Shown here in pieces: positions 34,081 to 53,392 of a stretch of DNA of 64,000 nucleotides. Origin of the DNA: an uncultured Anaerolineales bacterium (GTDB lineage: Bacteria; Chloroflexota; Anaerolineae; Anaerolineales; UBA11858); contig CAZLNX010000001.1 in assembly GCA_964560795.1 (NCBI GenBank), forward strand, positions 227 through 64,226. Direction: 5' to 3'. The first letter of the stretch is position 1. The number at the start of each line of letters is the position of its first letter. The notes beneath the pieces are model-generated. The model was given only the letters and a program-made list of their open reading frames with translations, ran no database searches and was not told the origin of the DNA. The position numbers and the translations under genes were made by a program.

Positions 34081-34174
34081 ATCACGAATGAAGACGAATT
34101 TTTCGAATACCATGAATTCCTATAAAATATTATTCCTATTCGTACCATTGGTGATATTCGTTTTCATTCGTGAT
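34081..34174. repeat. R1 palindromic element (phased CGAAT / ATTCG words), copy a
   Basis: Outer arms ATCACGAATGAAGACGAAT (34081-34099) and ATTCGTTTTCATTCGTGAT (34156-34174) are reverse complements with one mismatch. (C/T)GAAT words sit at 34085, 34095, 34104 and 34113, mirrored on the right arm. Confidence 0.85.
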
Positions 34175-34177
34175 TTT

Positions 34178-34651
34178 TTATATATTCATCTCAGCAGCGG
34201 TTGCTTCGATGGCTTCGGTGATTTCATGGTAGCCAGTACAGCGACACAAATTTCCAGCCACAGCTGCTTTGATCTCAGCCTGGGTGGGCTCTGGATTCTT
34301 CATCAGTAGCGCATAGGCCGACATCAACATCCCGGCGGTGCAATAGCCGCATTGGAATGCCCACTTATCGATGAAATTCTGCTGCAATGGGTGCAGCTTA
34401 CCAGCCTCTTCAAGACCCTCAACCGTCATCAGCTCAGCACCATCGGCCTGGGGAGCCAGGACCAAACAGGAATTGACTGCTTCTCCGTCCATTAGGATCA
34501 CGCAGGCTCCACAATCTCCCTGGCCGCAGGCCTCTTTGGCACCTTTTAATTTGAGATCATCGCGCAGCACGCTGAGCAAGGTGCGGCTAGGTTCGGTTTC
34601 GATCGCAACCGGGTTACCATTCACAGCAAAACGCACAGTGCTTTTTGCCAT
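34178..34651 (-). CDS. [2Fe-2S] small subunit of Mo hydroxylase
   Basis: 157 aa with CGQGDCGACVI and CRCTGY clusters. Starts immediately after the FAD subunit stop. Confidence 0.9.
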   Translation of the reverse strand: MAKSTVRFAVNGNPVAIETEPSRTLLSVLRDDLKLKGAKEACGQGDCGACVILMDGEAVNSCLVLAPQADGAELMTVEGLEEAGKLHPLQQNFIDKWAFQCGYCTAGMLMSAYALLMKNPEPTQAEIKAAVAGNLCRCTGYHEITEAIEATAAEMNI

Positions 34652-35521
34652 CTACACCCCCTCCTCGATCTGCTTCCAGGCCGCAGCCAAAGCCCTGCGG
34701 GTCAGCACACTGACCATTTTCGCCCGGTACTCCCCGCTAGCGCGAATATCTGAAATAGGCGAAGCTTCTGTTCTGGCAACATTTCCAGCCTCGATGAAAA
34801 CTTCAACACTCGGGGATTGCCCCATGAGCACTGCCTCCGCTTTGACAGCGCGGATTGGTGTGGGTGCAACGGACCCTAAGGCGATCCTGGCCTGGGGTAT
34901 TTTTCCTGATTCGTCCAGCGTCAGCCGGGCAGCGGCGCTCACGACAGCTATCGCCATGGCCCTGCGCTTGCCTAACTTGATAAAGGCCGATGATGTGTTT
35001 TTTGGAGCGAACGGGATGCGAATTTCGGTCAGGATCTCGTCGGCTGCCAGAACTGTGGACCCTGGGCCTGTGAAGAAATCCGCCAGGGGCACATCACGTT
35101 GAGTGTCGGCTTTCGCCAGAACAATCACAGCATCATAGACCAACAGCGGCGGTGCCAAATCTGCCGCAGGTGAAGCATTGACCAGGTTGCCGCCTACCGT
35201 CCCACGATTGCGGATTGGAGGGCCAGCAATATCCCAGGCGGCTTCGATCAGCGCGGGACAGTGCTCCGCCAACAATTCGGATTCCAGGACTTCGGTATGG
35301 GTGGTACTGGCTCCGAGGTGAATCCCGTCTCCAAGCATTTCAATGCCACCCAAACCGAGCAGTCGTAAATCGACCAGCAGAGAAGGTTCGATCATCCTGG
35401 AGCGCATGCGCGGGATCAGGTCCGTACCCCCAGCAATGATCTGCACCCCTTCAGCTTGTTTTCCCAAGGTTTTCAATGCTTCAGATAAAGATTGTGGCGC
35501 AAGATAATCAGGTTTGTTCAT
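34652..35521 (-). CDS. FAD-binding medium subunit of Mo hydroxylase (CoxM/XdhB-like)
   Basis: 289 aa. Blocks IIAGGTDLIP and GTVGGNLVNASPAAD, plus a CO-dehydrogenase flavoprotein C-terminal-like tail. Confidence 0.85.
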   Translation of the reverse strand: MNKPDYLAPQSLSEALKTLGKQAEGVQIIAGGTDLIPRMRSRMIEPSLLVDLRLLGLGGIEMLGDGIHLGASTTHTEVLESELLAEHCPALIEAAWDIAGPPIRNRGTVGGNLVNASPAADLAPPLLVYDAVIVLAKADTQRDVPLADFFTGPGSTVLAADEILTEIRIPFAPKNTSSAFIKLGKRRAMAIAVVSAAARLTLDESGKIPQARIALGSVAPTPIRAVKAEAVLMGQSPSVEVFIEAGNVARTEASPISDIRASGEYRAKMVSVLTRRALAAAWKQIEEGV

Positions 35522-35539
35522 ATATCTCCTCTAACAAAA

Positions 35540-36919
35540 TCAGAGTACGAGTCCAAGTTCTTTTAATTCCTTGATGACTTCTTCATAGACGGCCTGCCAT
35601 TCCGGGTCAGGTTCCAGGGTATCCAGGTTGTAGGTTTCACGGAAATGCTTGCCAATATCTGCCGTGGGTATTTTTTCGGCATATTTGGCAACCAACTTTT
35701 GAACCAAGGCATTTCCCTCAGTACGGCTCATGCCCTCAACAGCATGGGCTACCTGGGCGCAGAAGCGCGCTTCCAATGGTGAAGTGTGCCCCATATTGCG
35801 TCCGGTGGCCGATTGCACCGACTTGATATAATCCACCCCGGAAGTGACACCGACAATGGCCATGGTAGCAACTTCATAGAGGATTTCCTTCACGCCAGGG
35901 CCATGAGCCGGGCGGATGTGAATACCATTCAGTAGATGGGTATTGCGGGCCAGGGCCTGGAAGCTGAGCGCCTGGGCTGCCAGCATATCCGGATGCGTAT
36001 CGCAGCTCAGATGAGCATGGCTGGGTCCGGCGTTGACGGTATCGCCGAACAGGCAGGCTCGCAGCATGATACACCCGGCAGCATTGCCAATAGCTACGCC
36101 AGCCTTGCCTCCCAGATAACCGCCGTAAATCGGGTCGCAGAAGGTGTGCGCCACGGATCCGGTCTGAAAGAAATGGGTCGCCCGGGTCAGGTCGGCATAG
36201 GATACTTTCAACTCGCTGACAAAAGAGGCGTGATGCCAATCGCTGCGCCGATAGGCGCCATAGCTGGTAGCTGCCAACTCGATGATCTCACTGCCCGAAG
36301 TGGCTGCGGCCCCGATGCATATATCCGGCCTCCCAGCGCGTGCCACAGCCGCCCGTGCCAGGTCGGCCTCGCGTTTGGCGGCCACCGCCTCCCAAGGGGA
36401 TTGAATGCGGATGGTACGTCCCAACGCAGTGGGAATGGAGGGCGGCTCGATAATATCCAGCAGGCGTTCTTTGGCATAAGCTTCCACCATGGCGCCGAAG
36501 AGTTCTTCTTCGATCAGGGTGCCGTAGGCCCCGCCAAGGATAGTGACTCGCGCCGCTTCTTCCGGTTTGCGGAACTTGATGACCACCTGATCAGCACCCT
36601 CACCGACAGACAACGCATCGGGAGCAGAATCAACCGCCTTCTGGAGTTCATCCTGGCTCCAGACCATCTGGCGCTTGGTGTTAAGGCAGAGCACCCCGCT
36701 CTCCAGAGCCAATTCCCAACCGGCCTGAAATAAGCGATCAGCCAGATCATCATCGGAAGGGATCAGCACTTCATCATCCCAGGTGATATCGTATTTTGAA
36801 ATTAATTCTTTAACTTTGGCCCCGATATACTGTCGATCCCAATCCTTCTCATCGATGATGGGTCCCGTATCAGCCTTCTCCAGAACGGATGCCATATATT
36901 CAAAATCATTTTTTTCCAT
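35540..36919 (-). CDS. MttB-superfamily methyltransferase paralog 4 (subfamily B)
   Basis: 459 aa. Blocks KADTGPIIDEKDWD, DDDLADRLFQAG, SDWHHASFVSELKVSY, GPGVKEILYE, SPLEARFCAQVAHA. Confidence 0.85.
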   Translation of the reverse strand: MEKNDFEYMASVLEKADTGPIIDEKDWDRQYIGAKVKELISKYDITWDDEVLIPSDDDLADRLFQAGWELALESGVLCLNTKRQMVWSQDELQKAVDSAPDALSVGEGADQVVIKFRKPEEAARVTILGGAYGTLIEEELFGAMVEAYAKERLLDIIEPPSIPTALGRTIRIQSPWEAVAAKREADLARAAVARAGRPDICIGAAATSGSEIIELAATSYGAYRRSDWHHASFVSELKVSYADLTRATHFFQTGSVAHTFCDPIYGGYLGGKAGVAIGNAAGCIMLRACLFGDTVNAGPSHAHLSCDTHPDMLAAQALSFQALARNTHLLNGIHIRPAHGPGVKEILYEVATMAIVGVTSGVDYIKSVQSATGRNMGHTSPLEARFCAQVAHAVEGMSRTEGNALVQKLVAKYAEKIPTADIGKHFRETYNLDTLEPDPEWQAVYEEVIKELKELGLVL

Positions 36920-36963
36920 GTGCTACTCCTAAAGATGATGTTTCTAAAAAGAGAGTAATATTC

Positions 36964-37037
36964 ACCACGAAGTCGCGAAGATCGCAAAGATTAATTGAAT
37001 ATTTCTCTAAGCTTAGCGACCTTGGTGCCTTTGCGGT
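36964..37037. repeat. R2 palindromic element (CGNNAAG words), copy c
   Basis: Left arm ACCACGAAGTCGCGAAGATCGCAAAG (36964-36989). Right arm CTTAGCGACCTTGGTGCCTTTGCGGT (37012-37037). The two 26-nt arms form an imperfect inverted repeat. Confidence 0.8.
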
Positions 37038-37049
37038 TCAAAAATAATA

Positions 37050-38426
37050 TCAACCTAATACATGATCTTCCGGAACGAGCTTTTCATAACGCTCCCAAAA
37101 AGAGGGGACAATCTCCCGGGACCTGGCCTTGATTTCATCTTCATCTAGGGTGGTTAAGATGCGATCTTTCATCAAAACCTGGCCGTTGACAATCGTGGTG
37201 GTGATCATGGATTCGTTGAAGCCAAAGACAAAGTGTCCAGCCAAGTTTTCGACCGTCATCGGCGTTGTCGGTTTGTAATCGACAAAAATCAGATCCGCTA
37301 AAGCCCCTGGCTCGATGACACCCACCCGGCCATCAGGGAAATAGGCTGAAGCCAGGGCAGCGTTGTTGTGTATCGCCATCTGCAGTAATTGATCGCCGGG
37401 CAAACGCCGGCTGTCGCGGTGTTTGATCTTCTGCAAGAGATAAGCAGCTTCTGCTTCGCGCCACATGGTATTCGTCAGGCCATCATTTCCCAGGCAAACG
37501 GGTATACCAGCCCGTAAATAGGATTCGACTTCGGCAATACCGTCAGCGGCATTCTGATTATTGCGCGGCTGATGGCTGACCCAAGAATTGCTCTCGGCAA
37601 TTAGCTGCACTTCGCGTGCATCCAGGTGAATGGCATGGGCCAGAATGGATTTATCCCCAAGAATACCGTGCTTCAGCAAACGATCCACAGAGCGTATCCC
37701 GGACATAGCCTGGCTGCGGACCTGGTCATATTCGTGTTCTGCCACATGCAGGTGGAATCCAGTTCCCTCGGGCACAGCCTCCCGGCAGGCAGCCAGGGTT
37801 TCTTCGGAAACCGTCATGGGCGCGTGAATGCCAAAATTGGCTGCCACACGTCCCTCAGAAATCTGATCCTGGTTGCAGCGGCGCACGAAACGGGCATTCT
37901 CAGCAATTCCAGCCTTGGCGCGTTCGGGGCCATCGCGGTCGGTGACTTCAAAACACAACACTGAGCGCAGTCCGGATTCGTCCATCGCTTCGGCAATCAC
38001 ATCCAAAACACCATCGATAAAGTTGGGGGAAGAATGATGATCGAACAAGGTGGTTGTACCGTGCTTGATAGCATCAATGGCTCCCACCAACGCGGAATAG
38101 CGCACATCTTCCTCGCTGAGCGCTTTATCAAAGGGCCACCATAACTTATGTAAGATAGTGGGCAACGTAATCGGCGCGTCACCCGGAACCGATATTCCGA
38201 CCGCGAATGCACTGTAATAATGACCATGAGCGTTGATATTTCCGGGCATCACATATTGGCCGCGGGCGTCCATCCATTCTTCACCCGAATATCGTTTGGC
38301 CAATTCCGTAGAGGGACCAATTTCAGTGATCATTCCATTGCGAATAAACACAGCCTGATTCTCTATAATCTGGTTAGGGGTTCCCCAGGTGATCAAGTGT
38401 GCATTCGTAATTAACATAACTATCAA
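37050..38426 (-). CDS. ssnA: amidohydrolase, SsnA-like putative aminohydrolase
   Basis: 458 aa. Blocks PGNINAHGHYYSAF, LWWPFDKALSEEDV, KHGTTTLFDHHSSP, CFEVTDRDG and HLHVAEHEYD follow the E. coli SsnA pattern as I recall it. Confidence 0.7.
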   Translation of the reverse strand: MIVMLITNAHLITWGTPNQIIENQAVFIRNGMITEIGPSTELAKRYSGEEWMDARGQYVMPGNINAHGHYYSAFAVGISVPGDAPITLPTILHKLWWPFDKALSEEDVRYSALVGAIDAIKHGTTTLFDHHSSPNFIDGVLDVIAEAMDESGLRSVLCFEVTDRDGPERAKAGIAENARFVRRCNQDQISEGRVAANFGIHAPMTVSEETLAACREAVPEGTGFHLHVAEHEYDQVRSQAMSGIRSVDRLLKHGILGDKSILAHAIHLDAREVQLIAESNSWVSHQPRNNQNAADGIAEVESYLRAGIPVCLGNDGLTNTMWREAEAAYLLQKIKHRDSRRLPGDQLLQMAIHNNAALASAYFPDGRVGVIEPGALADLIFVDYKPTTPMTVENLAGHFVFGFNESMITTTIVNGQVLMKDRILTTLDEDEIKARSREIVPSFWERYEKLVPEDHVLG

Positions 38427-38439
38427 TCCTTTAAAGCCA

Positions 38440-39606
38440 CTAAACTTCTATCTGGCTCAATCGTTGGGCAATGCCCATGAATCCACTCACTGAACGCACC
38501 AGTTCAGGGATTTCAATATATTCATCGGTTACGTGAGCCACAAGGACAGAACCTGGCCCAAAAACAATTGTGGGGATACCCCGCTCTCCAGCACTGCCAG
38601 ACCCATTGGTGCAATAAGGTGTGCCATAGGTGATCGGGGGGATACCCGCCCCTTCTAAACCTTCCAGGCTGAGCCTGACCCAATCCGAATCAGGCTCTAC
38701 GGCCCAGGCGGGGTGGAAATCTTTTCGTGTAATGTGTACCCCCGTATAGCAATCAAACGAGAGCTCATCATAGTCAACATCCCAGCCTGTAAGATCATCG
38801 AGAGCCTTGCGATGGATCTCAAGCACTGTTTCGCGTGTCTCACCACGCACCATACGCCGATCAAAAATGACCTGGCACTCATAGGGTATAGTCGAGAAGC
38901 TCGGGTTTGGTTTGGAACTAATATGGATGGGTTCCATCACGCTGCGCCCCAATAGAGGATCTTCAACAAGGGGGATCTGGCGCACCCGGCGAATTACTTC
39001 AACAGCTTTCTCGATGGCATTCTCGCCGACTTCAGGTGAGGAGCTGTGGGCGGATTTCCCTTTGACAGAAAAGATCACCCGGCAGCGACCTTTGTGGCCA
39101 ATCCCAAGGCGACAGTCGGTCGGCTCTCCAATCACAACGCCATCGGGTTGGACGGCATCTAAGACACTTTCTAAAGCAGCACCTTCCAGAAGCTCTTCCC
39201 CAACTGTGCCCACTGCGTAAACTTCACCTGAGAATGAGTCGCGCTGCAAAGCCGCCAAAGCGATTGTAAAAGCAGCCAAGCTGCCCCGATCATCTGTTGA
39301 TCCGCGCCCCCAGAGCTTTCCATCAACGACTTCACCCCCAAAGGGATCATGAACCCAGGCATCTCGGTCACCCACCTCGACAGTATCCATATGGGCATCG
39401 AAGACAAGTTTGGGACCAGGTTTACTCCCCACGCGCCGGCCAATTACATTGCCAACTTCATCACGCCAGACATCATCGAAGCCCAAGGCGCGCATCTTGT
39501 TAAGGGCAACGTCAGCTACGGCTTCCAAATCGCCAGCCAGGCCGGGTGCCCGCACCAATTCCTGTAAGTATTCAACAACTTCGTTTTCGATGTCCATAGT
39601 AGGCAT
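38440..39606 (-). CDS. M20-family metallohydrolase (ArgE/DapE/YgeY-like)
   Basis: Blocks FDAHMDTV, GRGSTDDRG and GEE, plus a dimerisation-domain layout. Start trimmed to ATG 39606 (MPTMDIEN), after the upstream stop at 39612. Confidence 0.8.
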   Translation of the reverse strand: MPTMDIENEVVEYLQELVRAPGLAGDLEAVADVALNKMRALGFDDVWRDEVGNVIGRRVGSKPGPKLVFDAHMDTVEVGDRDAWVHDPFGGEVVDGKLWGRGSTDDRGSLAAFTIALAALQRDSFSGEVYAVGTVGEELLEGAALESVLDAVQPDGVVIGEPTDCRLGIGHKGRCRVIFSVKGKSAHSSSPEVGENAIEKAVEVIRRVRQIPLVEDPLLGRSVMEPIHISSKPNPSFSTIPYECQVIFDRRMVRGETRETVLEIHRKALDDLTGWDVDYDELSFDCYTGVHITRKDFHPAWAVEPDSDWVRLSLEGLEGAGIPPITYGTPYCTNGSGSAGERGIPTIVFGPGSVLVAHVTDEYIEIPELVRSVSGFMGIAQRLSQIEV

Positions 39607-39611
39607 AAAAT

Positions 39612-40631
39612 CTAAACGCCATCGGCAAAGGCATCGATGACGTCTCTGATATTGCCGCGCAGAGGATACAAAATCGGGCAAGTGACTCCAGCATCGATAT
39701 ACTCTTTGACCTTAGCGCGGCAATCTGCGGCAGTACCAACAGCCATGATGTCACGCACAATCTCCTCGGGGATCACGGCGCTGGCGCGCTCGTAATCTTC
39801 CTCGGTGGCGGGCCAGCCCATCAGGGCTTTGGCCTTGTCAGCGATCTCTTCGCTAACGCCGCTGGCCTTCATGATATGGGGCTCTGTGGCGAAATAGTAG
39901 GCGGCCAACTTTTTACCCGAGTGCAGGGCGGCATCCGGGTCTTCATCGGACATAGAGACCACCATCAATTCGGGCAGGTCGACATCTTTGATCGTCTTGC
40001 CCGCTTTCTGCGCACCTTTCTCCACCAGGGCAATGGCGCGTTTGACATAGTCAACGGAGACGCCGTAATTCAGGCAAACTCCATCACAAATCTCTCCAGC
40101 CAACTCAAGCATTTTCGGGCCGGTAGCGCCCAAGTAAATAGGAATATCGCGGGGTGACGTATCCCCATAAACCACATCCAGGCTGACGTTTTCCAGGTTG
40201 ACGAATTCGCCCTGATAGGTGATGGTCTCCATAGTCAGCAACTGACGCACAGCTTCGATATTTTCACGCATAGCCTTGAGAGGTTTGCTCATCTTCACAC
40301 CAACCCGGCTGGCGATAGGCTCCCACCAGGCACCCAGACCGAGCATCACCCGGCCACGGCCATCCACCTTGCCACCCAGTTCCCACATGGTGCTGAAACT
40401 GGCTGCAATCACTGCCGGATTCCGGGTCCAGATGGGCAATACACCTGACGCTACACGAAGGCGTTTGGTATGCGTAAGGAAAGCGCTCATCAAGACAATA
40501 CAATCCCTGGCCAGGCGGTTGTCGCCCTGCCAGATCTCACTGAAACCGCGCTCTTCCATATAGCGCGCCAGTTCTAGCTCTTCACGGATGTCAACCACAT
40601 CCTGCATGTAGATGGCCATTCGGTTAGTCAT
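39612..40631 (-). CDS. luciferase-like (LLM) flavin/F420-dependent oxidoreductase, Mer-like
   Basis: 339 aa TIM-barrel LLM pattern ([35 protein letters not shown]). Confidence 0.75.
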
Positions 40632-40660
40632 AGTTCACTCCAATAAAAAACGCATACCTG

Positions 40661-40754
40661 TCCTTGCGAAGGCGCCTCAGCGATTGAAACAATCTCTTCA
40701 ATCAACGCGGGAGACTGCCATGTCGCACGCTAATTGCGTGCTCATCGCAGTGAC
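40661..40754. repeat. degenerate R3-like palindromic element
   Basis: Contains GCGAAGGCGCCTCAGCGATTG, the hairpin GCACGC-TAATT-GCGTGC and the terminal GCTCATCGCAGTGAC. Resembles the R3 termini but is incomplete. Confidence 0.4.
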
Positions 40755-40758
40755 ATCA

Positions 40759-42150
40759 TCATAATGTCAGGCCCAATAAATCTTCCATCTCCTGGCAGAC
40801 TTCTTCGTACATTGCCTGCCACTCCGCTGTGGGTTGGAGGGACTCGACATCATAGGCTTCGGTGAAATGTTTACCTGCCATGGCGACACCCAGTTTTTGC
40901 GATTCAGCATAGAGAGGGGTCAGCTTCCTTACCAGAGGGTCAGCCTCGGCTCGTGTTAATCCTACGCTAGCACGCCCGACCTGGGCCAGGAATTTAGCTT
41001 CCAGGCCGGTGACATGCCCCTCGATGCGCCCGGCGGCGGATTGGACCCCTTCCAGGATCGAACAACCCGCCGGGACCGTAGCCACAGCCATAGCGGCAGC
41101 CTCATAGAGAAGTTCCTTGGTGACAGGTCCAGCGACCGGGCGCGGAAAGGAGGAAGTCAGCAATTTGGAGTTGCGGCTGATAGCCTGGAAACCCAGCGAC
41201 AAAGCCGGGATCATGGCGGGGAAGGTGCTGCAGCTGAGATGGGCATGGCTGGGACCGGGATTGAAGGTTGTCCCGTTGAGGGTGGCTTTCATCAAAATCA
41301 CACCAGCCACAATCGCAACGGCCAAACCATCTGCACCACCGACATATCCACCATAGATAGTGTTATAGAAATTGTGCGCAAATGCACCGGTATGCTGATA
41401 ATGCATCGCTTTGGTCAACTCGGCATAGGCGACTTTCAACTCAGAGATGAAGGAAGCATGATGCCAATCGGTGAGTCGGAAACCACCGTATGTACACGTA
41501 GCTAACTCGCCGATCTCTGATGGAGAATCTTCTGCACAGCCAATGGGCATCCCAGGGCGGCCAACCAGCTCAAGCACTTCGAAGGAGAGCTGCGCTTCTT
41601 GCCAACAGCCCACGGCTTCCCAGGGAGAGCCGGCTTTGATCGGCCGTCCATGTGTAGTGCTCAGGGTGGCGTTATCGATATAGTCAAGCACCCGCTCCTG
41701 AGCATAGCTGGCCATGATGGGGACAAATAATTCTTCAGGGACTGGGGTTCCATAGGGGCCACCGATGGTGGTTATGGGCGAATCCTGATCAGGAAGGCGA
41801 TGACGGATGGTGACACTATCATCGCCCAAACCGATGGTCTCCTCCTCTGGCGCCGTCGACAAGATCCAATCCAGCTCGTCCTGTGTCCACTTCATCTGGC
41901 GCTTGGTCTCCAGGCAATACACGCCCGTCTCGCGGGCCAGCTCCATTCCCGCTTCGAAAAGACGATCCGCTAAAGCGTCATCAGCGGGCACCATCGTTTC
42001 GGCATCCCATTGGATATCGTACTTCTGAATCAGACCTTTGATCGCCTGATGGATATACTTGAGATCCCAATCTTTCTCTTCCACCACAGGGCCATTTTCT
42101 GCTTTGTCCAGAACGGACAGCATGTATTGATAGGTTTCGCTAAGTTCCAT
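40759..42150 (-). CDS. MttB-superfamily methyltransferase paralog 5 (subfamily B)
   Basis: 463 aa. Blocks KAENGPVVEEKDWD, DDALADRLFEAG, TDWHHASFISELKVAY, TGLEAKFLAQVGRA. Confidence 0.85.
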   Translation of the reverse strand: MELSETYQYMLSVLDKAENGPVVEEKDWDLKYIHQAIKGLIQKYDIQWDAETMVPADDALADRLFEAGMELARETGVYCLETKRQMKWTQDELDWILSTAPEEETIGLGDDSVTIRHRLPDQDSPITTIGGPYGTPVPEELFVPIMASYAQERVLDYIDNATLSTTHGRPIKAGSPWEAVGCWQEAQLSFEVLELVGRPGMPIGCAEDSPSEIGELATCTYGGFRLTDWHHASFISELKVAYAELTKAMHYQHTGAFAHNFYNTIYGGYVGGADGLAVAIVAGVILMKATLNGTTFNPGPSHAHLSCSTFPAMIPALSLGFQAISRNSKLLTSSFPRPVAGPVTKELLYEAAAMAVATVPAGCSILEGVQSAAGRIEGHVTGLEAKFLAQVGRASVGLTRAEADPLVRKLTPLYAESQKLGVAMAGKHFTEAYDVESLQPTAEWQAMYEEVCQEMEDLLGLTL

Positions 42151-42185
42151 GAATATAACTCCTGATATTTTTGTCTTTATTATTT

Positions 42186-42302
42186 ACCGCGAAGACGCCA
42201 AGAGCGCTAAGATTGATCATTAGGGACAGATTCGGTAACGATTTAGTTGATTCTCTTTGCATTCCAAATATTATTTCTTCGCGAGCTTTGCGCCTTGGCG
42301 TT
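42186..42302. repeat. R2 palindromic element, copy d
   Basis: Left arm ACCGCGAAGACGCCAAGAGCGCTAAG (42186-42211). Right arm CTTCGCGAGCTTTGCGCCTTGGCGTT (42277-42302). The core between the arms is 65 nt and variable. Confidence 0.8.
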
Positions 42303-42315
42303 TCAATTACCGCCT

Positions 42316-43563: not shown

Positions 43564-43581
43564 GTAGATACCTTTCGTTTG

Positions 43582-44346: not shown

Positions 44347-44368
44347 AATTCACCTCTAGTTGTAAGTC

Positions 44369-44382: not shown

Positions 44383-44388
44383 AATATA

Positions 44389-44417
44389 AAAATATCAGGA
44401 TTCGTACAAAGAGTCAA
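44389..44417 (-). promoter_or_regulatory. candidate promoter P1 (TTGACT-17-TATTTT)
   Basis: Coding strand reads ATTTGACT, 17 nt, TATTTT, 6 nt, then the palindrome. The spacing is the same as at 50878..50906. Confidence 0.55.
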
Positions 44418-44464
44418 ATAATCTGACCCTTATGGGGAGAATTGTCACCTCCAACATGTGACAA

Positions 44465-45703: not shown

Positions 45704-45753
45704 AGTTATTTGTCACTACAATAAATATCTAGTAACCAAAATGGGCAGATAAA

Positions 45754-45861
45754 ACCGCCAAGACACGAAGTTCGCGAAGACATATCATTTATGTCTGATG
45801 TTGATCTCAACATCAGGAGAATTTATTAAATATCTCTTTGCGCCCTTTGCGCCTTAGCGGT
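45754..45861. repeat. R2 palindromic element, copy e
   Basis: Left arm ACCGCCAAGACACGAAGTTCGCGAAG (45754-45779). Right arm CTTTGCGCCCTTTGCGCCTTAGCGGT (45836-45861). The core contains the hairpin CTGATGTTGA / TCAACATCAG. Confidence 0.8.
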
Positions 45862-45880
45862 AATAATCATATTTTCGAAA

Positions 45881-47269
45881 CTAAACCAATCTGTCCAAAG
45901 GAAGTCCGAGGTCGATCAGTTCTTGGCGAACTTCGTCGTACATGCCCTGCCATTCAGGCGTCGGCTCGACGTTATCGATGTCGTAGACCTCTTCGAAAGG
46001 CTTGCCGATGGGCTTCTTGTCCAGGTCATCCACGTAGAGCGGGATGATCTGCTTGACGATCTCGTCCGCTTCGGCACGGCTCATGCCGCGCACGGCTCGG
46101 GTGACCTCGCCACAGATCTTGGAGTCCAGACCGCTGGCGTGGCGGGGGATGCTGCCACCGGAAGCCGAGTGGCAGGAGGTCATCAGTGATTGACCGGAAA
46201 CGGTGGTCGCAGCGACGAAAGCCGCGTTCTCGTATAACATGGTCTTGGTGCCAGGCCCGCCAGCGGGACCTACCAGGGTATCCACCAACATGTTGGTATT
46301 GCGGGTCAGCCCTTGCACGCCCAGGGCAATTGCCCAGATCATCTCGGGGGTGGTGTCGCAGTTGTAGAAGGGATGATTGGGGCGGGTGTTATACGTATGC
46401 CCAGGATGACATTGGTTGAGCAGGATCAGGCCGCCAACTACAGCGATGGCAATGCCTTCACCGCCGCCCACGTACCCACCATAGATGGGGTTGTAATAGG
46501 CCTCGAGCAGGGTTCCCGTGCGCACAGAGTGGGTGACAATGGAGAGCATATCGTAGTTGGTCTTCAGCTCGCTCATGATGGGCGCGTGCAACCAATCGGT
46601 AGTACGATAACCACCATAGGATACGCCCGAAAGGCCGCCTAAAGCTGTGGCGGACAGTTCGACGCAACCCAGGCACATGCCGGGGCGTCCTGCAATTTCG
46701 GCTGCCTGAAGGGCCAGTTCGGCCTCGCGGCGAGCAGCCAGCACTTCCCAGGGTGAGCCGGCCTTGACCGGGTGCCCGTAGACAGACTCCAGCGAGGGGT
46801 TGTCGATAACGTCGATGACACCCTCTTTGAGATAGCTGAGGCTCATGGGGATGTACATGTACTCGGGAACAGGCACACCATAGGCCCCACCGGCCACCAC
46901 TACCCGCTCATCATCATCGGGCACGCGCGCCTTGCACACCACGGCGTCCGCCCCTGCCCCCATGACGATCTCCGATGGCACGTGGCGCAGCCCCTCCAGC
47001 AGTTCTTCTTTTGTCCAGACAATGCGGCGGCTGGTGTTCTGGCAGAACATACCTGCCTCTGTCGCCAGATCCAGGCCAGCCTGGAAGACGCGGTCGGCCA
47101 GGTCATCATCGCTGTTAACAATCACGGATTCGTCAAACTTGATATCGTAATCTTCGATCAGCTTTTTTACAGTGGGCGCGATCAATTTGCGCTCAAAGTC
47201 TTCCTCCTCCATGATCGGTCCTGTTTCCGCCCGGTGAAGAACCTCAACAATTCTTGCTCGGTGTCCCAT
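45881..47269 (-). CDS. MttB-superfamily methyltransferase paralog 6 (subfamily A)
   Basis: 462 aa. Blocks RAETGPIMEEEDFE, DDDLADRVFQAG, GPGTKTMLYE, SGLDSKICGEVTRA. Confidence 0.85.
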   Translation of the reverse strand: MGHRARIVEVLHRAETGPIMEEEDFERKLIAPTVKKLIEDYDIKFDESVIVNSDDDLADRVFQAGLDLATEAGMFCQNTSRRIVWTKEELLEGLRHVPSEIVMGAGADAVVCKARVPDDDERVVVAGGAYGVPVPEYMYIPMSLSYLKEGVIDVIDNPSLESVYGHPVKAGSPWEVLAARREAELALQAAEIAGRPGMCLGCVELSATALGGLSGVSYGGYRTTDWLHAPIMSELKTNYDMLSIVTHSVRTGTLLEAYYNPIYGGYVGGGEGIAIAVVGGLILLNQCHPGHTYNTRPNHPFYNCDTTPEMIWAIALGVQGLTRNTNMLVDTLVGPAGGPGTKTMLYENAAFVAATTVSGQSLMTSCHSASGGSIPRHASGLDSKICGEVTRAVRGMSRAEADEIVKQIIPLYVDDLDKKPIGKPFEEVYDIDNVEPTPEWQGMYDEVRQELIDLGLPLDRLV

Positions 47270-47326
47270 GACAAACTCTCCTTTCCAAATATTGGTTTTG
47301 GTCTTCTACTTCCTCTTAATGGCAAT

Positions 47327-48721
47327 TCAATCAAGTGGGATTCCTAATTCAATCATCTCTTGCCGCGCAACCTCATACACCGCTTGCCACTCGGCCGTCG
47401 GCTCGAGCGTTTCAAGGTCAAAGCACTCGTCAAAGGGTTGTCCTTTTTTGAGCAGATTTTGTTCATCCTTGAACATGCCGATCAGCTTGTTGACGATTGG
47501 GTGAGCCTCGGCGCGTCTCATACCGCTGGCAGCATGCGCTACTTCGGCGGCGAAACGGGCTTCGAGCGGCGAGCAGTGCCCTTCAAATCGGCCGGTGGCG
47601 GTCTGCACACCCTGTCCCAACCACACGCCAGATGTGACCGTGGCCAGTTGGTAGGCGGCAATTTCGTACAGCATGTCTATCTCTGTCGGGCCCGCAGCCG
47701 GGCGAGTAAAGTTGGCGATGCAAATATTGGAATTGCGCGAGAGCGCCTGCATAGCTACGGCTTGAGAGACGATAAGCGGGGGGAAGGTATTGAAACTGTG
47801 ATGTGCGTGACTGATGCCTGTATTGAAATAATCGCCAAAAAGCGTGGCCTTCATCAAGATGAAACCAGCCACGGTGGCGATGGCCGTACCTTCAACACCC
47901 CCAGCGAAACCACCAAAGATGGGGTTGTAGAAATTATGCACAAACGAATTGGTTTCAATAAAATGAGAGGTGCGGATAAGGTCTTCATAGGGCACTTTTA
48001 GCTCGCTCATAAACGAGGCGTTCTGCACATCAGTCCGGCGCATGCCCCCATAAGATTGCACACTGACAGTGCCGATTGCGGAAGCAGAAGTGTTCGGTGC
48101 ACAAACCGCCATCCCTGGGCGCCCGACATCTTCAATGGCCTGCATGGTCATGCGGACCTCATGCCAACAGCCAGCGGTATCCCAGGGTGATCCAGCCCGC
48201 ACCGGTCTACCGTGGACAGTCTTGAGCGCACCGGTGGTGAAATAGTTAAAAAGCGGTTCCTTGACATAGGCCTTGTTCAGGCGCAAGAAGTACTCCTCGG
48301 GGATCACCACCCCCCATGGCCCGCCGCCAAAAGGCACTTTTCCTGAAGAATCCGGGGTGCGTTTGTTAATCACAAAAGCATCTTCACCTGTCCCGGCAGT
48401 TAACGTATCAGGTATCCGGTCGAGCACGCCCTGGATTTCCTCTTCCGTCCAGATCATTCGGCGGCCGGTATCCGTGCAGTACACACCAGCATCCACGCAA
48501 AGCTGGATGGCAGCGGCAAACAAGCGGTCCGCCAGGTCATCATCATCTGGCACGCCTGGCTCGGCAACTGGAAAGCTTAGATCATATTTTTCAACCAACT
48601 CTTTGATCTTGGCATAGATATAGACGTTGTCCCATTCCTTAAGATCGATCATGGGGCCATTCTCGGCCTTGTCGAGTACAGCTAGGAACTCTTCGTGCGG
48701 AACTTTGGGCTCAAACGGCAT
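47327..48721 (-). CDS. MttB-superfamily methyltransferase paralog 7 (subfamily B)
   Basis: Start trimmed from 48757 to ATG 48721 (MPFEPKV), preceded by AAGGAG. This removes the overlap with paralog 8. Blocks KAENGPMIDLKEWD, SFMSELKVPY, SPLEARFAAEVAHA. Confidence 0.85.
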   Translation of the reverse strand: MPFEPKVPHEEFLAVLDKAENGPMIDLKEWDNVYIYAKIKELVEKYDLSFPVAEPGVPDDDDLADRLFAAAIQLCVDAGVYCTDTGRRMIWTEEEIQGVLDRIPDTLTAGTGEDAFVINKRTPDSSGKVPFGGGPWGVVIPEEYFLRLNKAYVKEPLFNYFTTGALKTVHGRPVRAGSPWDTAGCWHEVRMTMQAIEDVGRPGMAVCAPNTSASAIGTVSVQSYGGMRRTDVQNASFMSELKVPYEDLIRTSHFIETNSFVHNFYNPIFGGFAGGVEGTAIATVAGFILMKATLFGDYFNTGISHAHHSFNTFPPLIVSQAVAMQALSRNSNICIANFTRPAAGPTEIDMLYEIAAYQLATVTSGVWLGQGVQTATGRFEGHCSPLEARFAAEVAHAASGMRRAEAHPIVNKLIGMFKDEQNLLKKGQPFDECFDLETLEPTAEWQAVYEVARQEMIELGIPLD

Positions 48722-48734
48722 ACTTGTATCTCCT

Positions 48735-50126
48735 TTAATTCTGTCCAAATTGATCAAGCGGCATCCCCATGGCGATCAACTCACCCCTGACCTCATCGTA
48801 GATTCCCTGCCATTCGGCAGTCGGCTCCACGGTTTCAATATCGTAAACTTGTTCAAAGGGTTTTCCGATGGGTTTTTTCTCTAAATCAGATTGATAGAGT
48901 GGCACGATTTGAGTGAGCAGCTCGTTGGCATGTTCACGCGTCAACCCTGGCATCGTTCGAGCAACCTCGGCACAAATCCGGGCATCAAGACCGCTGCCAT
49001 GACGCGGTACAGCCCCTCCAGCAGAGTGGCTAGCCAGCAGTTCAGACACCCCTGAAGCCATTGACATCAATGCGAATGCAGCGTTTTCATAGACAATGGT
49101 CTTGGTTCCTGGCCCACCAGCTGGACCAGCCAGCGTAGCGATCATCAGATCACTATTGCGGGTTAATGCCTGTACGCCCAGGCTTGTGGCCCACAAGATT
49201 TCCGGTGTGGTGTCGCAGCCATAAAATGGATGGGTAGGACGAGTGCAAAAAGTATGGCCAATAGAAATCTGATTGAGTAAGATCATCCCCGCCGCCACGG
49301 CAATTGCAGTGCCTTCGGCCCCTCCAACATGGCCTCCATAGATTGGGTTGTAATAAGCCCCGATAAATCCATTCAAATTATGGATGTGAGTAATGATGGC
49401 CAGCAAATCGTTGTTGGTTTTGAATTCACTGGTGGTTGCAACATGGTGGCGGTCAAAGGTGCGATAGCCACCCCAGGTAACCCCGGCCAATCCGCCCAGC
49501 GCCGTCGGAGCCAATTCGACAGCGGAAAATGGGGTTCCCATCTTTCCAACAAGGGATAGTGCTTCCTGGGCCAATTCGGCTTTCCTCCAGGCCCCTAATA
49601 CTTCCCAACCTGTACCAGCCTTTATGGGATAGCCATAGGCCGTTTCAAGAGAAACGCTATCAATAGAATCAAAAATTCCCTGCTTGAGAAAACTCAATGT
49701 CAGGGGAAGATGCAAATCTTCTGGGAAAGGTATACCAACTACGCCTCCCAGGAGCGCAACGCGCTGTGAATCCTCGGGCATGCGGGCAACAACAGTGAAC
49801 TGTTCGTCCCTCTCTCCTAGTGAGGCCTGATTATGGCAAGTTTGTATGGCTTCTTCAATTTCATCACGAGTCCAGGTGATGCGACGGCTGGTGCTCTGAT
49901 TGAACATCCCAACTTCACTGGCAAAATCTACTCCGGCTTGGAACACCCGATCAGCAAGATCGTCGTCGGAATTGACATAGGATTCACCCGTATACTGAAT
50001 ATCGTATTTTTCGACCAGACGTTTGATCGTTGGTCCCACCAGCTTACGCTCAAAATCGACCTCGTCCATGATAGGCCCAGACTCAGAGCGCTCGAGGACT
50101 TCGAAAAGCCTAGGATGCTGCTTCAT
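48735..50126 (-). CDS. MttB-superfamily methyltransferase paralog 8 (subfamily A)
   Basis: Start trimmed from 50279 to ATG 50126 (MKQHPRLFEVLERSESGP), preceded by AAGGAG and lying downstream of the corrinoid gene stop at 50152. Confidence 0.85.
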   Translation of the reverse strand: MKQHPRLFEVLERSESGPIMDEVDFERKLVGPTIKRLVEKYDIQYTGESYVNSDDDLADRVFQAGVDFASEVGMFNQSTSRRITWTRDEIEEAIQTCHNQASLGERDEQFTVVARMPEDSQRVALLGGVVGIPFPEDLHLPLTLSFLKQGIFDSIDSVSLETAYGYPIKAGTGWEVLGAWRKAELAQEALSLVGKMGTPFSAVELAPTALGGLAGVTWGGYRTFDRHHVATTSEFKTNNDLLAIITHIHNLNGFIGAYYNPIYGGHVGGAEGTAIAVAAGMILLNQISIGHTFCTRPTHPFYGCDTTPEILWATSLGVQALTRNSDLMIATLAGPAGGPGTKTIVYENAAFALMSMASGVSELLASHSAGGAVPRHGSGLDARICAEVARTMPGLTREHANELLTQIVPLYQSDLEKKPIGKPFEQVYDIETVEPTAEWQGIYDEVRGELIAMGMPLDQFGQN

Positions 50127-50151
50127 TGCTAGTCTCCTTTTATTGTTCCGA

Positions 50152-50829
50152 CTACGCAGGTCGATCCAGCAATGCCAGGCATTTCTCCACAGCTTCGACA
50201 GCATCCTTGCCAAAGGCATCGGCGCCAATTTCAGCGGTGTATTCGGCCGTGATCGGTGCTCCACCGACGATGACGACAAAATCGTTCTTTAGGCCAAAGC
50301 CATCCCGGAGTTCGACACATTCCTTCATGTAGGGCATCGAGGTGGTCATCAAGGATGATAAGCCGACAATATCAGCGCCCACTTCTTTGGCCTTATCAAG
50401 CATATCGCGCGGCGGCACATCAACACCCATATCGAAGACTTCGAAGCCGTTCACCCGCAGCATCAGCACGACCATGTTCTTGCCAATATCATGCAGATCA
50501 CCCTTGACTGAGCCGATAACGATCTTGCCCCGGATCACTTCTTGATCCGAATCGGAGGCCGCCAACATAGGCTGTACCACCTGATCGCTGATAGCCTGGG
50601 CGCGGTCTGCGGCATCCATCAATTCAGGCAAAAAGATCTCCATGCGACCAAATTTGTCACCGACTGCTGCCATAGCGGGAGTAAAGATCATATTGAAGAA
50701 ATCCGTGACACCGATATCACCAGCCAAAGTTTCTTTGGCCCAATCCAGACCGGCATCCGGTTCATCTCCTAATAACAATTCCATGAGTTCTTTCTGCAGT
50801 GCTTTAAAATCAGACATAGGGACCTCCAA
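50152..50829 (-). CDS. corrinoid (B12-binding) methyl-carrier protein 3
   Basis: 225 aa with GDLHDIGKNMV, SSLMTT and IVGGA. The start may instead be ATG 50817. Confidence 0.9.
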   Translation of the reverse strand: MEVPMSDFKALQKELMELLLGDEPDAGLDWAKETLAGDIGVTDFFNMIFTPAMAAVGDKFGRMEIFLPELMDAADRAQAISDQVVQPMLAASDSDQEVIRGKIVIGSVKGDLHDIGKNMVVLMLRVNGFEVFDMGVDVPPRDMLDKAKEVGADIVGLSSLMTTSMPYMKECVELRDGFGLKNDFVVIVGGAPITAEYTAEIGADAFGKDAVEAVEKCLALLDRPA

Positions 50830-50857
50830 GGCATATTCGCGGAATTAGTTGTCAGTC

Positions 50858-50871
50858 GTCAAACGTTTGAC
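50858..50871. promoter_or_regulatory. perfect 14-bp palindrome GTCAAACGTTTGAC (candidate GntR operator, site 2)
   Basis: Lies within AGTCGTCAAACGTTTGAC (50854-50871), identical to site 1. Sits 28 nt upstream of the corrinoid protein ORF. Confidence 0.7.
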
Positions 50872-50877
50872 GTTTAG

Positions 50878-50906
50878 AGATTAGCATATTTTTTCACAAA
50901 AGTCAA
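50878..50906 (-). promoter_or_regulatory. candidate promoter P2 (TTGACT-17-TAATCT)
   Basis: Coding strand reads ATTTGACT, 17 nt, TAATCT, 6 nt, then the palindrome. The geometry equals that of P1. Confidence 0.55.
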
Positions 50907-50933
50907 ATTTTCATAATTTTTTGAATTAAGGAT

Positions 50934-51039
50934 GTCATCCTGAGCGGAGCGAAGGATCTGAATCGTATTTTTTTGAGAGATTCTTCGCCCCTCGCCGTAG
51001 GCGGACCTTGCCGTAGGCACGTCTTAGACAGGCCATGAC
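50934..51039. repeat. R3 REP-like palindromic element, copy f
   Basis: GTCATCCTGAGCGGAGCGAAGGATCT ... AGATTCTTCGCC ... GGCCATGAC. The right half carries a direct duplication of GCCGTAGGC. Confidence 0.75.
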
Positions 51040-51067
51040 AGTTCAACTGGAAAACTTTCAAAATACG

Positions 51068-52441
51068 TTAACTAATCTGCAACCCCCACCCACCAACTTC
51101 TTCTTTGACTTTGTTGTAAATATCCATCCATTCAGGCTTCGGCTGCATATTCTCAAGGTCATAGGCCTCGGAGAAGGCAATCCCAACAGGTTTTTGATCC
51201 ATCACCGGTTGATATTGGGCGATGGCCTTTTGTACGATCTCGTCGGCCTGCTCCCGGCTCAGGCCCGCGGCGGCGTGAGCGACTTTTCCATTGAAGCGCG
51301 TCTCCAGCCCGGTGCAGTGGTTCTCGACCACCCCCACCCCAGAGCGCACGCCCAGGGCGCGCGAACCACCACAAACCGAGATTGTCATGGCCATAGCTAC
51401 ACACTCGTACAGCAGCGACTCGGTTCCAGGCCCACTGACCGGCGAGGTCATGAATTCAGACAGCAAATGCGAATTGCGTGATGTAGCCGCAGCCACCACG
51501 CTGATCGCCCGCATGATATCCGGGAAAGTGGAGTTAGCCAGGAAAGGATGTGTGGGGCACGACTCGACACTATCAGGCATGTAGATCAGATGCATGGCCA
51601 TCCAACCGGCAAGGATCAGGATCGCAACGCCTTCGGCGCCACCGCCCAGGCCGCCCATAATGGGGTTATAGAAACCCAGAATGACTCCCTCTTGACGCAG
51701 GCTGTGAGCCACTTTGTTCAGCAATTCATTATTGGTCTTCATCTCACTGATCAAAGCGACGATATGTGTATCCGTTGGTCGATAGCCGCCGCGGCTGATG
51801 GCCGAGAGATGCCCCAAATCGCTCATGGCCATCTCTACGCCCATGACCGACAACCCGGCTCGATCTGCACGCGCGGCAGCTTCCTGCACCAGGTCAACTT
51901 CCTGCCAGGAAGAGATCACTTCCAGGGGGGATTTGGCGCGCACTTTGCGGCCATAGCTGGTGGCTAGAGTTCCGGGGACGACAATATCTAAGATCGGCTC
52001 CTGAAAATAGGACTGCATGATGGGCACATACATATCTTCAGAAAGCGGCGTACCAATGGGACCACCACCCACCAAAGGGGGCTGCGGATCTTCGACCTGG
52101 CGTGGTCTGAATGCCCGAGCATCAACACCGTCTCCAATGGTGACCTGGGAAGGCGCAGCTTCCAGGGCAGCTTCAATTTCATCTTTGCTGAATTGGATCA
52201 CGCGCTGCGTGTCGGTATGGTAAACGCCACACTCCACCAGGAAATCCAGGGCGGCCTGCCAGACCCGATCGATCATATTGTCATCGCGCTGGAGTATGAG
52301 ATCTTTGTTGAAGGTGATCTCATACTCCTTGATCACGCGCGAAACGCCCGCGGACACAGATTTATCGAATTCCTTTTCGTCCACGATGGGGCCGGTGTAT
52401 ATTTTGTCGATTACGTCTAAAAGTCGCTGAATTTTATGCAT
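51068..52441 (-). CDS. MttB-superfamily methyltransferase paralog 9 (A-like, divergent)
   Basis: 457 aa. Blocks YTGPIVDEKEFD, GPGTESLLYE, TGLETRFNGKVAHA. Confidence 0.85.
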   Translation of the reverse strand: MHKIQRLLDVIDKIYTGPIVDEKEFDKSVSAGVSRVIKEYEITFNKDLILQRDDNMIDRVWQAALDFLVECGVYHTDTQRVIQFSKDEIEAALEAAPSQVTIGDGVDARAFRPRQVEDPQPPLVGGGPIGTPLSEDMYVPIMQSYFQEPILDIVVPGTLATSYGRKVRAKSPLEVISSWQEVDLVQEAAARADRAGLSVMGVEMAMSDLGHLSAISRGGYRPTDTHIVALISEMKTNNELLNKVAHSLRQEGVILGFYNPIMGGLGGGAEGVAILILAGWMAMHLIYMPDSVESCPTHPFLANSTFPDIMRAISVVAAATSRNSHLLSEFMTSPVSGPGTESLLYECVAMAMTISVCGGSRALGVRSGVGVVENHCTGLETRFNGKVAHAAAGLSREQADEIVQKAIAQYQPVMDQKPVGIAFSEAYDLENMQPKPEWMDIYNKVKEEVGGWGLQIS

Positions 52442-52471
52442 TATTGAGCCTCGAAAATCTCATTACTAATT

Positions 52472-52583
52472 GTCACTCTGAGCTTCATCCGGAGCAAAGT
52501 CGAAGGAAAAGCGAAGAGTCTCCCGCCCTCCGGGCGGAGATTCTTCACTTCGTTCACGTCAAAGGCGGGCCTATAGCCATGAC
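52472..52583. repeat. R3 REP-like palindromic element, copy g
   Basis: GTCACTCTGAGC ... GCGAAGAGTCTCCCGCCCTCCGGGCGGAGATTCTTCAC ... GCCATGAC. Confidence 0.7.
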
Positions 52584-52593
52584 AATACACTAA

Positions 52594-53226
52594 TTACACA
52601 GCCACCCACTCCTTCGCCAAACGCACGGCGCTCATGGCATCGGGACCCCAGGCATCGGCGTTGGCGTATTCGCAAGCGTAATCATCGACCTGACCGCCGC
52701 CGATCATCACTTTGACTTTCTCATCTAGTCCAGCTTCCCCCATTGCTTCCACAGTCGCTTTCATGGGGTCATAGGCCAGGGTCAAGAAACCGCTCAAAGC
52801 CAGGATCGAAGCGCCAGTCTCTTTTATTTTTTCCACAAATACGCCTGGGGGCACGTCCACACCTAAATCGAAAACTTCAAACCCATTGATATCCAGCATG
52901 AAGACCACGATATCTTTGGCGATATCGTGGATATCCCCCTGCACCGTGCCGATGACCACATTGCCGATTCGTTCCTGTTGGGATCCAGATGTCATCTTGG
53001 GTTTGACCAATTCAGAGATCGTCTTCAAGATCTCACCGGCCATCATCAGTTCAGGCAAGAAAGCTTCTTCACGCTCAAAGCGCCCCCCGATGATGGTCAT
53101 AGCTTCACGGCAGTCGCTGAGGATATCTAAGGGATCGACTCCCTCATCGAGCAACTGCGTTGTAATTTGTGCGGCCTCCCCTTCGGCCATATTTACGATT
53201 GCATTAACGAGTTCATTGTTGGGCAT
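52594..53226 (-). CDS. corrinoid (B12-binding) methyl-carrier protein 4 (DxHxxA variant)
   Basis: 210 aa. The B12 loop reads GDIHDIAKDIV, with Ala where the other three copies have Gly. Also LSGFLT and MIGGG. Confidence 0.85.
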   Translation of the reverse strand: MPNNELVNAIVNMAEGEAAQITTQLLDEGVDPLDILSDCREAMTIIGGRFEREEAFLPELMMAGEILKTISELVKPKMTSGSQQERIGNVVIGTVQGDIHDIAKDIVVFMLDINGFEVFDLGVDVPPGVFVEKIKETGASILALSGFLTLAYDPMKATVEAMGEAGLDEKVKVMIGGGQVDDYACEYANADAWGPDAMSAVRLAKEWVAV

Positions 53227-53289
53227 AATACTCTACTTTCAATGGATTCTTGCTACCTGCATTTTGTATGGGAGTTGATCCTTTTCTCA

Positions 53290-53392
53290 ATCACGAATTA
53301 GAGCGAATGTCCCGAATTACACGAATATTTAGTGATAATTTGTAAAAATTATTGTATTCGTGCAATTCGTAGTATTCGGATTCATTCGTGAT
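53290..53392. repeat. R1 palindromic element, copy b
   Basis: CGAAT words at 53294, 53304, 53313 and 53322 are mirrored exactly by ATTCG words at 53356, 53365, 53374 and 53384. Outer arms are ATCACGAAT and ATTCGTGAT. Confidence 0.85.

Follow-up and report, generated by a model that had tools for sequence, protein, structure and literature searches.

The locus considered here is a 64,000-nucleotide stretch of DNA from an uncultured Anaerolineales bacterium (assembly GCA_964560795.1, contig CAZLNX010000001.1, positions 227 to 64,226 of the forward strand), referred to below as the window and numbered from its first letter. Two long palindromes, elements a and b, are built from phased CGAAT words and lie directly upstream of two corrinoid protein genes in the window, and their position raises the question of whether they serve these genes or were inserted beside them. 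Both palindromes are members of a dispersed repeat family that is linked to genes for GxxExxY proteins, that is polymorphic for insertion at orthologous sites, and that has been amplified to multiple copies in a related genome. The reading favoured here, with moderate confidence, is that the two elements are inserted, non-autonomous solo copies, resembling miniature inverted-repeat transposable elements (MITEs), of a widespread GxxExxY cassette, and that their words are predicted binding sites of the GxxExxY nuclease. On balance, their placement before corrinoid genes would then be incidental.

Two phased palindromes and their absence from orthologous loci

Both of the palindromes reported in the earlier note are present in the window. 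Element a (34081-34174) is a solo palindrome, i.e., one without a gene, in the spacer between a CoxS-like gene and a corrinoid gene. Its first arm (34081-34117, plus strand) reads ATCACGAAT-N5-CGAAT-N4-CGAAT-N4-TGAAT, with words at 34085, 34095, 34104 and 34113, and its second arm (34138-34174, minus strand) reads ATCACGAAT-N5-CGAAT-N4-CCAAT-N4-CGAAT, in which the third word is CCAAT. The A+T-rich loop of 20 nt between the arms (34118-34137) is the site at which full units carry the GxxExxY gene. Element b (53290-53392), also a solo palindrome, occupies part of the 186 nt that separate an EamA-family gene from the second corrinoid gene. It comprises a first arm with four CGAAT words (53290-53327, plus strand; words at 53294, 53304, 53313 and 53322), an A+T-rich loop of 27 nt (53328-53354), and a second arm on the minus strand (53355-53392) that is seen on the plus strand as four ATTCG words at 53356, 53365, 53374 and 53384. 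The arms measure 37 nt in element a and 38 nt in element b, and a repeat search gave a complementarity of 76% in each. Both elements are intergenic, with terminal inverted repeats and no coding capacity.

All four arms share the formula ATCACGAAT-N5-CGAAT-N4-C(G/C)AAT-N4-(C/T)GAAT, and the 10/9/9 phasing of the words, as originally described, is exact in each of them. Alignment of the two elements in both orientations upheld the description of conserved words and non-conserved spacers: the words are invariant and the spacers variable, and elements a and b differ in every spacer and share the words only. The pattern CGAAT-N5-CGAAT-N4-CSAAT occurs four times in the window, versus 0.01 expected from shuffled sequences. 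Bare CGAAT and ATTCG words (63 + 66 = 129) are about as frequent as expected by chance, with no overall enrichment, and they form only two clusters in the window, which are elements a and b. Two details of the earlier note were not sustained. The ATTGG at 34147, described there as degenerate, corresponds to a CCAAT third word that recurs in Anaerolineales copies and is not a sign of decay. The CGAAT words reported at 59872-60112 number four, are unphased and are at chance level, as five or more words per 241 nt were present in 91 of 200 simulated sequences; this region is outside the repeat family.

Element a is absent from three syntenic loci with the gene order MtmB-CoxM-CoxS-corrinoid-YdcZ-CoxL (L206, L208 and L210), in which the corrinoid proteins are 84-87% identical. 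The CoxS/corrinoid spacer of these loci is 22-38 nt long and holds a ribosome-binding site (RBS) only, versus approximately 130 nt in the window, 94 of which are palindrome. Beside a corrinoid homologue with 92% identity, a different insert of 340 nt was found where the window has element a. Similarly, the EamA/corrinoid spacers of the orthologues L212, L213 and L214 are without element b. In orthologues with 84% and 81% identity this spacer has no CGAAT array and carries other repeats; in a third orthologue it is equal to that of the window in length, the one property compared. Comparison of the filled and empty sites for element a left only an A-rich ambiguity, and no target-site duplication was defined. 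A further difference was seen in L115, where an arm adjoins a gene whose 80%-identical (nucleotide) counterpart in the window (15526-15984) has no arm beside it. Because orthologous corrinoid loci are without them, both elements are regarded as lineage-specific insertions and, as judged from these comparisons, they are dispensable and not conserved parts of the corrinoid loci.

A second family of hairpin repeats, intergenic and G+C-rich with GTCAYYCTGAGCGGAGC-like ends, is represented in the window at approximately 50935-51035 (minus strand), and GTCAYYCTGAGCGGAGC-type hairpins are also found in L203 (~1870-1990), L212 (~1860-1960) and L081 (~4720-4900). Hairpins of this type fill orthologous spacers that lack the CGAAT elements, and the one in L081 is nested within a CGAAT element.

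Spread of the arms and their GxxExxY partner

The same arms were found in many other genomes. A scan with the pattern TCACGAAT-N5-CGAAT-N4-CSAAT, with one genome per species, returned at least 118 loci, versus about 35 expected by chance according to our own rough estimate. By their record titles, the 118 loci listed include about 23 from Anaerolineae and other Chloroflexota, about 56 from Bacteroidota (18 of them Mucilaginibacter) and 10 from Methanosarcinales and other archaea; the rest belong to various other phyla and some are probably chance matches. Desulfobacterota, Elusimicrobiota and Calditrichia are among the taxa with these arms. Many of the listed loci are palindromes, and their commonest spacings, (10,9), (10,9,9) and (9,10,9), are the same as in the window. 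Arrays fall within open frames of at least 200 codons in 13% of cases versus 70% of random positions, and their neighbours elsewhere include NADH dehydrogenase, LpxL, sigma factor, RNase H, gmd/fcl and ABC transporter genes. The proposed bias toward corrinoid or methyltransferase genes was not borne out: none of the 118 array-bearing loci listed has a corrinoid, MtmB or URO-D gene, and the neighbours are unrelated housekeeping genes.

The number of words per array ranges from 1 to 14. Direct-only or outward-facing arrangements of the arms were observed in L021, L078, L114 and L020, and long direct-only arrays of up to 14 words in L021 (5203-5323), L078 (954-1077), L065 (~350-720) and L006 (~730-870). 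Among the long direct arrays are some made of 44-nt tandem units and some with other hairpin repeats in between. The length of the arrays is clearly unstable, slippage being the probable cause.

When the open reading frames (ORFs) of the array loci were clustered, the only recurring family was a protein of approximately 125 amino acids (aa) encoded exactly between a CGAAT arm and an ATTCG arm. Clusters of response regulators, ABC ATPases and epimerases were rejected as array partners, being merely common families; a larger unit, flanked by palindromes about 2.1 kb apart in L067, L105 and L106, was likewise rejected, as the enclosed genes (SdrD-like, SIS, sigma factor) are unrelated. The partner protein is GxxExxY (TIGR04256), which is the same as PDDEXK_3 (PF13366) and has the PD-(D/E)XK nuclease fold; the D...ExK catalytic motif is invariant in an alignment of GxxExxY proteins. 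An AlphaFold (AF2) model with a predicted local distance difference test score (pLDDT) of 89.9 displayed a minimal PD-(D/E)XK core, for which Foldseek placed lambda exonuclease/LHK-Exo and Cas4 nearest (E ~1e-4, template modelling score ~0.5), with a weaker likeness to Hjc and to tRNA-splicing endonucleases. A search of PDB sequences with the GxxExxY profile returned noise only. The PF13366/TIGR04256 family is very large (at least 7980 matches at E<=1e-10 from one query) and extends over Bacteria, Archaea and viruses. Since only 8 of 72,556 plasmid records contain the gene, the cassette is not regarded as a plasmid-borne element. In the literature the function of the GxxExxY family is given as "unknown" and multiple horizontal transfers are described (PMC3424549).

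The association was also measured in a sample that is independent of the repeat, consisting of 80 metagenome loci picked by the GxxExxY protein alone, 70 of which had both flanks; this sample leans to Bacteroidota (the query was made up of five closer sequences). At least three CGAAT words were present within 120 nt upstream of 36 of the 70 genes, at least three ATTCG words within 120 nt downstream of 43, and at least three words on some side of 56 (80%), relative to a background of 0.2 words per 135 nt. Some of the remaining genes have variant words on both sides, either CGGAT/ATCCG or CACTAAT/ATTAGTG. Units from Chloroflexota carry CACGGAT or CACAGAT words, and one from Treponema carries a single CACGGAT...ATCCGTG pair. 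Within a unit, one word variant is common to both arms, and the general word is CACRRAT. In 41 of 43 cases the GxxExxY gene had the same orientation as both of its neighbours, and it is positioned in intercistronic gaps such as gmd/fcl, wzm/wzt and rfbB/rfbA. Two units stood out for their words: L073 (~4330-5100), from Bacteroidota, has CACTGTG/CACAGTG words, with the same letters as the heptamer of the V(D)J recombination signal, and L215 (~860-1500) has CACAGAT words that form a complete palindrome at each side of the GxxExxY gene.

The distance between arms has a bimodal distribution, with gaps of 5-157 nt in one mode and of 377-484 nt in the other, and with a single gap of 241 nt. Every gap of at least 377 nt holds a GxxExxY gene or pseudogene, and no GxxExxY relics were detected in the solo loops (gaps of 5-157 nt), the mode to which both window loops belong. 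At a dtd/mazG-like junction in three related Bacteroidota genomes, L074 has an empty site, L063 a solo and L069 a full unit; the outer boundaries match exactly, and the spacers of the R arm are common to the solo and full states. In one related Anaerolineales metagenome-assembled genome (MAG), a solo family of approximately 190 nt is present in at least six copies, which resemble one another in their spacers, their loop and their outer flanks. This family has an outer extension of the inverted repeat, one of its copies is split by another repeat, and its third word is the CCAAT variant, as in element a. On this evidence, a solo and a full unit are probably alternative states of a single mobile element. 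At the empty dtd/mazG-like junction (L074, reverse complement, ~6438-6449), a lone word-like AATCACTAAT differs from the terminal ATCACGAAT at a single position; it may reflect a preferred target, be a footprint or have arisen by chance.

A candidate mechanism and its rivals

In the mechanism proposed here, a full cassette consists of a phased CACRRAT arm (in this case (CA)CGAAT, 9-10 nt apart), a GxxExxY gene for a protein of about 125 aa, and the inverted words, and it sits co-directionally inside operons. Solos keep both arms, with a loop of only 5-160 nt in place of the gene, and would behave like MITEs; elements a and b would have entered the CoxS/corrinoid and EamA/corrinoid spacers as insertions of this kind. 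With about one word per helical turn on one face of the DNA, the words are predicted to be binding sites of a GxxExxY nuclease acting in trans. The protein would bind both arms, pair or extrude them and cut, such that the element moves, and solos would be mobilised in trans. Each window solo would also form a stable interrupted hairpin in the polycistronic mRNA just 5' of the corrinoid RBS and may alter message stability or translation in the manner of repetitive extragenic palindromes (REPs).

Complementarity of the spacers is 47% within one element versus 40% in a control pairing arms of different elements. Identical words recur at each helical turn, the same word is conserved from Archaea to Bacteroidota and the spacers are hardly constrained; these features suggest that a sequence-specific reader recognises the arms and that base pairing does not suffice as an explanation. 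The GxxExxY protein is the candidate reader, as no other candidate accompanies the words. An array of protein-binding sites, preferred in the earlier note to a simple hairpin, would fit the words, their phasing and the free spacers. Among the four readings offered there, the REP/MITE-like mobile palindrome is the one favoured by the insertion polymorphism, the dispersed copies and the gene-bearing partner with the same ends. More tentatively, GxxExxY genes and phased CACRRAT arrays might together constitute an undescribed class of minimal mobile cassettes in Bacteria and Archaea, in which the nuclease would read and mobilise the words and the solos would be a MITE-like family that crosses phyla.

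Several findings weigh against mobile solo copies as the explanation. There is no GxxExxY gene within the 64-kb window, for which reason both copies are classed as solos, and the unit in the nearest sampled relative, MAG GCA_964438295.1, has CACGGAT rather than CACGAAT words. No binding, cleavage or transposition activity is known for GxxExxY proteins (function unknown in PMC3424549), and there is no clear target-site duplication at the dtd/mazG-like junction. The retention of words while spacers differ suggests continuing selection on the words or separate origins, not the neutral decay of a single recent insertion. The occurrence of both copies before corrinoid genes, which are 3 of about 50 genes, has a probability of about 0.004 when calculated after the fact and was left as coincidence. 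Finally, an RNA-level role of the arms would also be compatible with the co-orientation of the GxxExxY gene and its neighbours.

That RNA-level role is the main rival and is judged unlikely. It holds that in a read-through transcript the (CACGAAU)n and (AUUCGUG)n arms pair into an interrupted stem that is processed, by RNase III or the nuclease, or is protective, and that solos form a stable hairpin tuning the stability or translation of the flanking cistrons, as do Correia elements or REPs and bacterial interspersed mosaic elements (BIMEs). In addition to co-orientation, it accounts for the location of elements in intercistronic gaps with the downstream RBS intact and for the same word variant always being on both arms of a unit; the folding of both window elements is far better than that of shuffled sequences (z -4.7 to -6.8), and the weak Foldseek matches to tRNA-splicing endonucleases also speak for it. 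However, pairing requires neither identical words within an arm nor one word from Archaea to Bacteroidota, the spacers have almost no compensatory complementarity, and direct-only arrays and divergent arms exist (L021, L078, L114 and L020). The D-ExK site is typical of metal-dependent DNases, the spread of solos to new sites would go unexplained, and Rfam gave no match at the gathering score for the window and ten related loci, with noise only for element a at E<=10. More doubtful still is a homing process, with the palindrome serving as landing pad: the GxxExxY endonuclease would cut the palindrome at its centre, repair would copy the gene in, and solos would be unfilled targets. PD-(D/E)XK homing endonucleases exist, the gene is always exactly at the centre of the palindrome, solo and filled states have identical outer boundaries at one orthologous site, and the gaps are bimodal without relics of partial genes; but homing explains neither the arrival of solos at naive sites such as the CoxS/corrinoid spacer nor the amplification of the ~190-nt solos to at least six near-identical copies, and arms of 20-40 nt offer very little homology for repair.

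Control of the corrinoid genes by a host operator array or 5' leader, e.g., through a GntR/UTRA regulator, was a tempting reading: each copy in the window immediately precedes a corrinoid gene, phased words separated by free spacers recall the arrays of cooperative operators, and two GntR/UTRA regulators are encoded in the window. It is now very improbable: syntenic orthologues with 81-87% identical corrinoid proteins do without the elements, copies elsewhere lie beside unrelated genes with no corrinoid, MtmB or URO-D gene among the listed array loci, and upstream of the third corrinoid gene in the window there is another promoter and another palindrome. A cis-regulatory RNA or riboswitch, including the cobalamin riboswitch, was rejected, as there was no Rfam match and orthologues lack the elements. 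The least probable of the explanations is that there is no dedicated reader, with slippage of a 9-10-nt unit and palindrome formation producing the arrays and a historical link to GxxExxY. Although some arms contain tandem-identical units (in L127, CGAATTGTA three times) and the number of words is variable, slippage leaves unexplained the same word in different phyla and domains, the 80% association with one protein family, the variant shared by both arms of a unit, and the insertion polymorphism with identical boundaries.

For the mobile solo copies favoured here, an intergenic palindrome of MITE or REP type with a small gene-bearing partner is a familiar kind of system, whereas arms of phased words and a PD-(D/E)XK partner are not. 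Like the repeats described here, MITEs (Correia of Neisseria, ERIC/IRU, RUP and cyanobacterial Nezha) are non-coding imperfect palindromes of about 90-190 nt in intergenic or intercistronic positions, with presence or absence at orthologous sites, multi-copy families, co-transcription and a gene-bearing partner with the same ends. In contrast to MITEs, each arm here consists of a 5-7-nt word, present 1-8 times at helical phase, instead of one long terminal repeat, the word is common to phyla and domains, the spacers are nearly free, no target-site duplication was found, and the partner is a PD-(D/E)XK protein of ~125 aa and not a DDE or HUH transposase. REP/BIME systems with their RAYT protein (TnpA_REP) and IS200/IS605 are similar in having a very small candidate mobilising protein (~125-150 aa) with its gene between inverted repeat copies, many gene-less palindromes between genes and likely effects on mRNA stability; however, the elements described here have no GTAG-headed consensus (their ends are ATCACGAAT), have a D...ExK core in place of an HUH/Y1 protein, and have phased direct repeats in each arm rather than a single hairpin.

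The ends of En/Spm ("CACTA"), Mu and Tn7 likewise carry short binding words for the element's own protein, direct within an end and inverted between ends, in arrays thought to build a paired-end complex, but these elements are kilobases long with large DDE transposases, whereas the unit here is about 0.5 kb. Identical short words at fixed phase that are read by sequence are also known from ParR-parC iterons, omega repressor heptads and MetJ boxes; unlike the arms, those are non-mobile partition or repressor sites of ribbon-helix-helix proteins with periods of 7, 8 or 11 bp, and no ribbon-helix-helix protein is linked to the CGAAT arrays. Free-standing homing endonuclease genes resemble the cassette as small, co-oriented and variably present nuclease genes between conserved genes, but they have no inverted arms of repeated words and leave behind no abundant gene-less palindromes. 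Neither the element nor the protein had a match in PADLOC or PHROGs. No published description of the element was found, although subscription journals and database family notes may hold one, and GxxExxY, PDDEXK_3, PF13366 and TIGR04256 receive only passing mentions in the searchable literature.

With these results, a tempting regulatory story for the corrinoid and methyltransferase genes of the window is removed. The GxxExxY family, listed as of "unknown" function (PMC3424549), gains its first clear DNA partner with a countable architecture, so that its function becomes directly testable through binding or cleavage of a defined array of 7-nt words. The results also suggest a mobile unit of unusually small size that is resident within operons. 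The arrays provide annotators with a rule for recognising a class of intergenic palindromes that might, without it, be taken for operators, leaders or terminators.

Gene setting of the elements

The genes around both elements are all encoded on the minus strand. Element a is followed by a corrinoid (B12-binding) protein gene (33385-34047) with an RBS, GGAGA, just 5' of its start, and is preceded in the same operon by the gene for a CoxS-like [2Fe-2S] subunit (34178-34651), the stop of which is at 34178. Element b lies between an EamA-family gene for 136 aa (53413-53823), upstream, and the second corrinoid protein gene (52594-53226), downstream. The position of both elements 5' of corrinoid genes was therefore described correctly, but the start codon given for the first of these genes, the longest-ORF start at 34059, requires revision. 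The second ATG, at 34047 (ATGAGTAACTGG), is the probable true start, because orthologues begin at ATGAGTAACTGG behind a GGAGA RBS, which gives a protein of 220 aa rather than 224 aa.

No intrinsic terminator, with a G+C-rich stem and a U run on the transcribed strand, was found at either element in a terminator scan, and the T run that follows element a belongs to the plus strand, which is not transcribed. A tRNA scan of the window found none, and the locus was not found in three metatranscriptome runs of one study. In a promoter scan, the only promoter-like matches were two 9/12 hexamer pairs near element b, at about the level of shuffled sequences. A weak pair of this kind (TTGAGA, 18 nt, CAAAAT; 9/12) spans the outer end of element b and its flank (53261-53290, minus strand); its -35 hexamer begins at the last base of element b (53290) and extends into the flank, and it is no better than shuffles. 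A junction promoter at element b is only a hint.

The window derives from marine metagenomes, and its assignment to an Anaerolineales-like lineage of Chloroflexota agrees with the names of its close homologues and with a nucleotide identity of 80% to an Anaerolineales MAG across one gene. The wider gene island (16911-63640) contains about ten homologues of the MtmB family (PF05369). As their ORFs of approximately 460 aa are uninterrupted, these homologues have no in-frame amber/pyrrolysine codon, and we know of no substrates for such non-pyrrolysine MtmB homologues. The same island encodes three corrinoid proteins, a URO-D/MtaA-like protein, amidohydrolases, a CoxSML-like molybdenum hydroxylase, the two GntR/UTRA regulators and a Bmp-type ABC transporter. 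Neither element lies upstream of the third corrinoid gene (50152-50829). Ahead of it, on the minus strand, is a sigma-70-like promoter with TTGACT (50906-50901) and TAATCT (50883-50878) separated by 17 nt, followed directly by a perfect 16-nt palindrome, CGTCAAACGTTTGACG (50872-50857, minus strand), which is likely the operator of another regulator and unrelated to the CGAAT elements.

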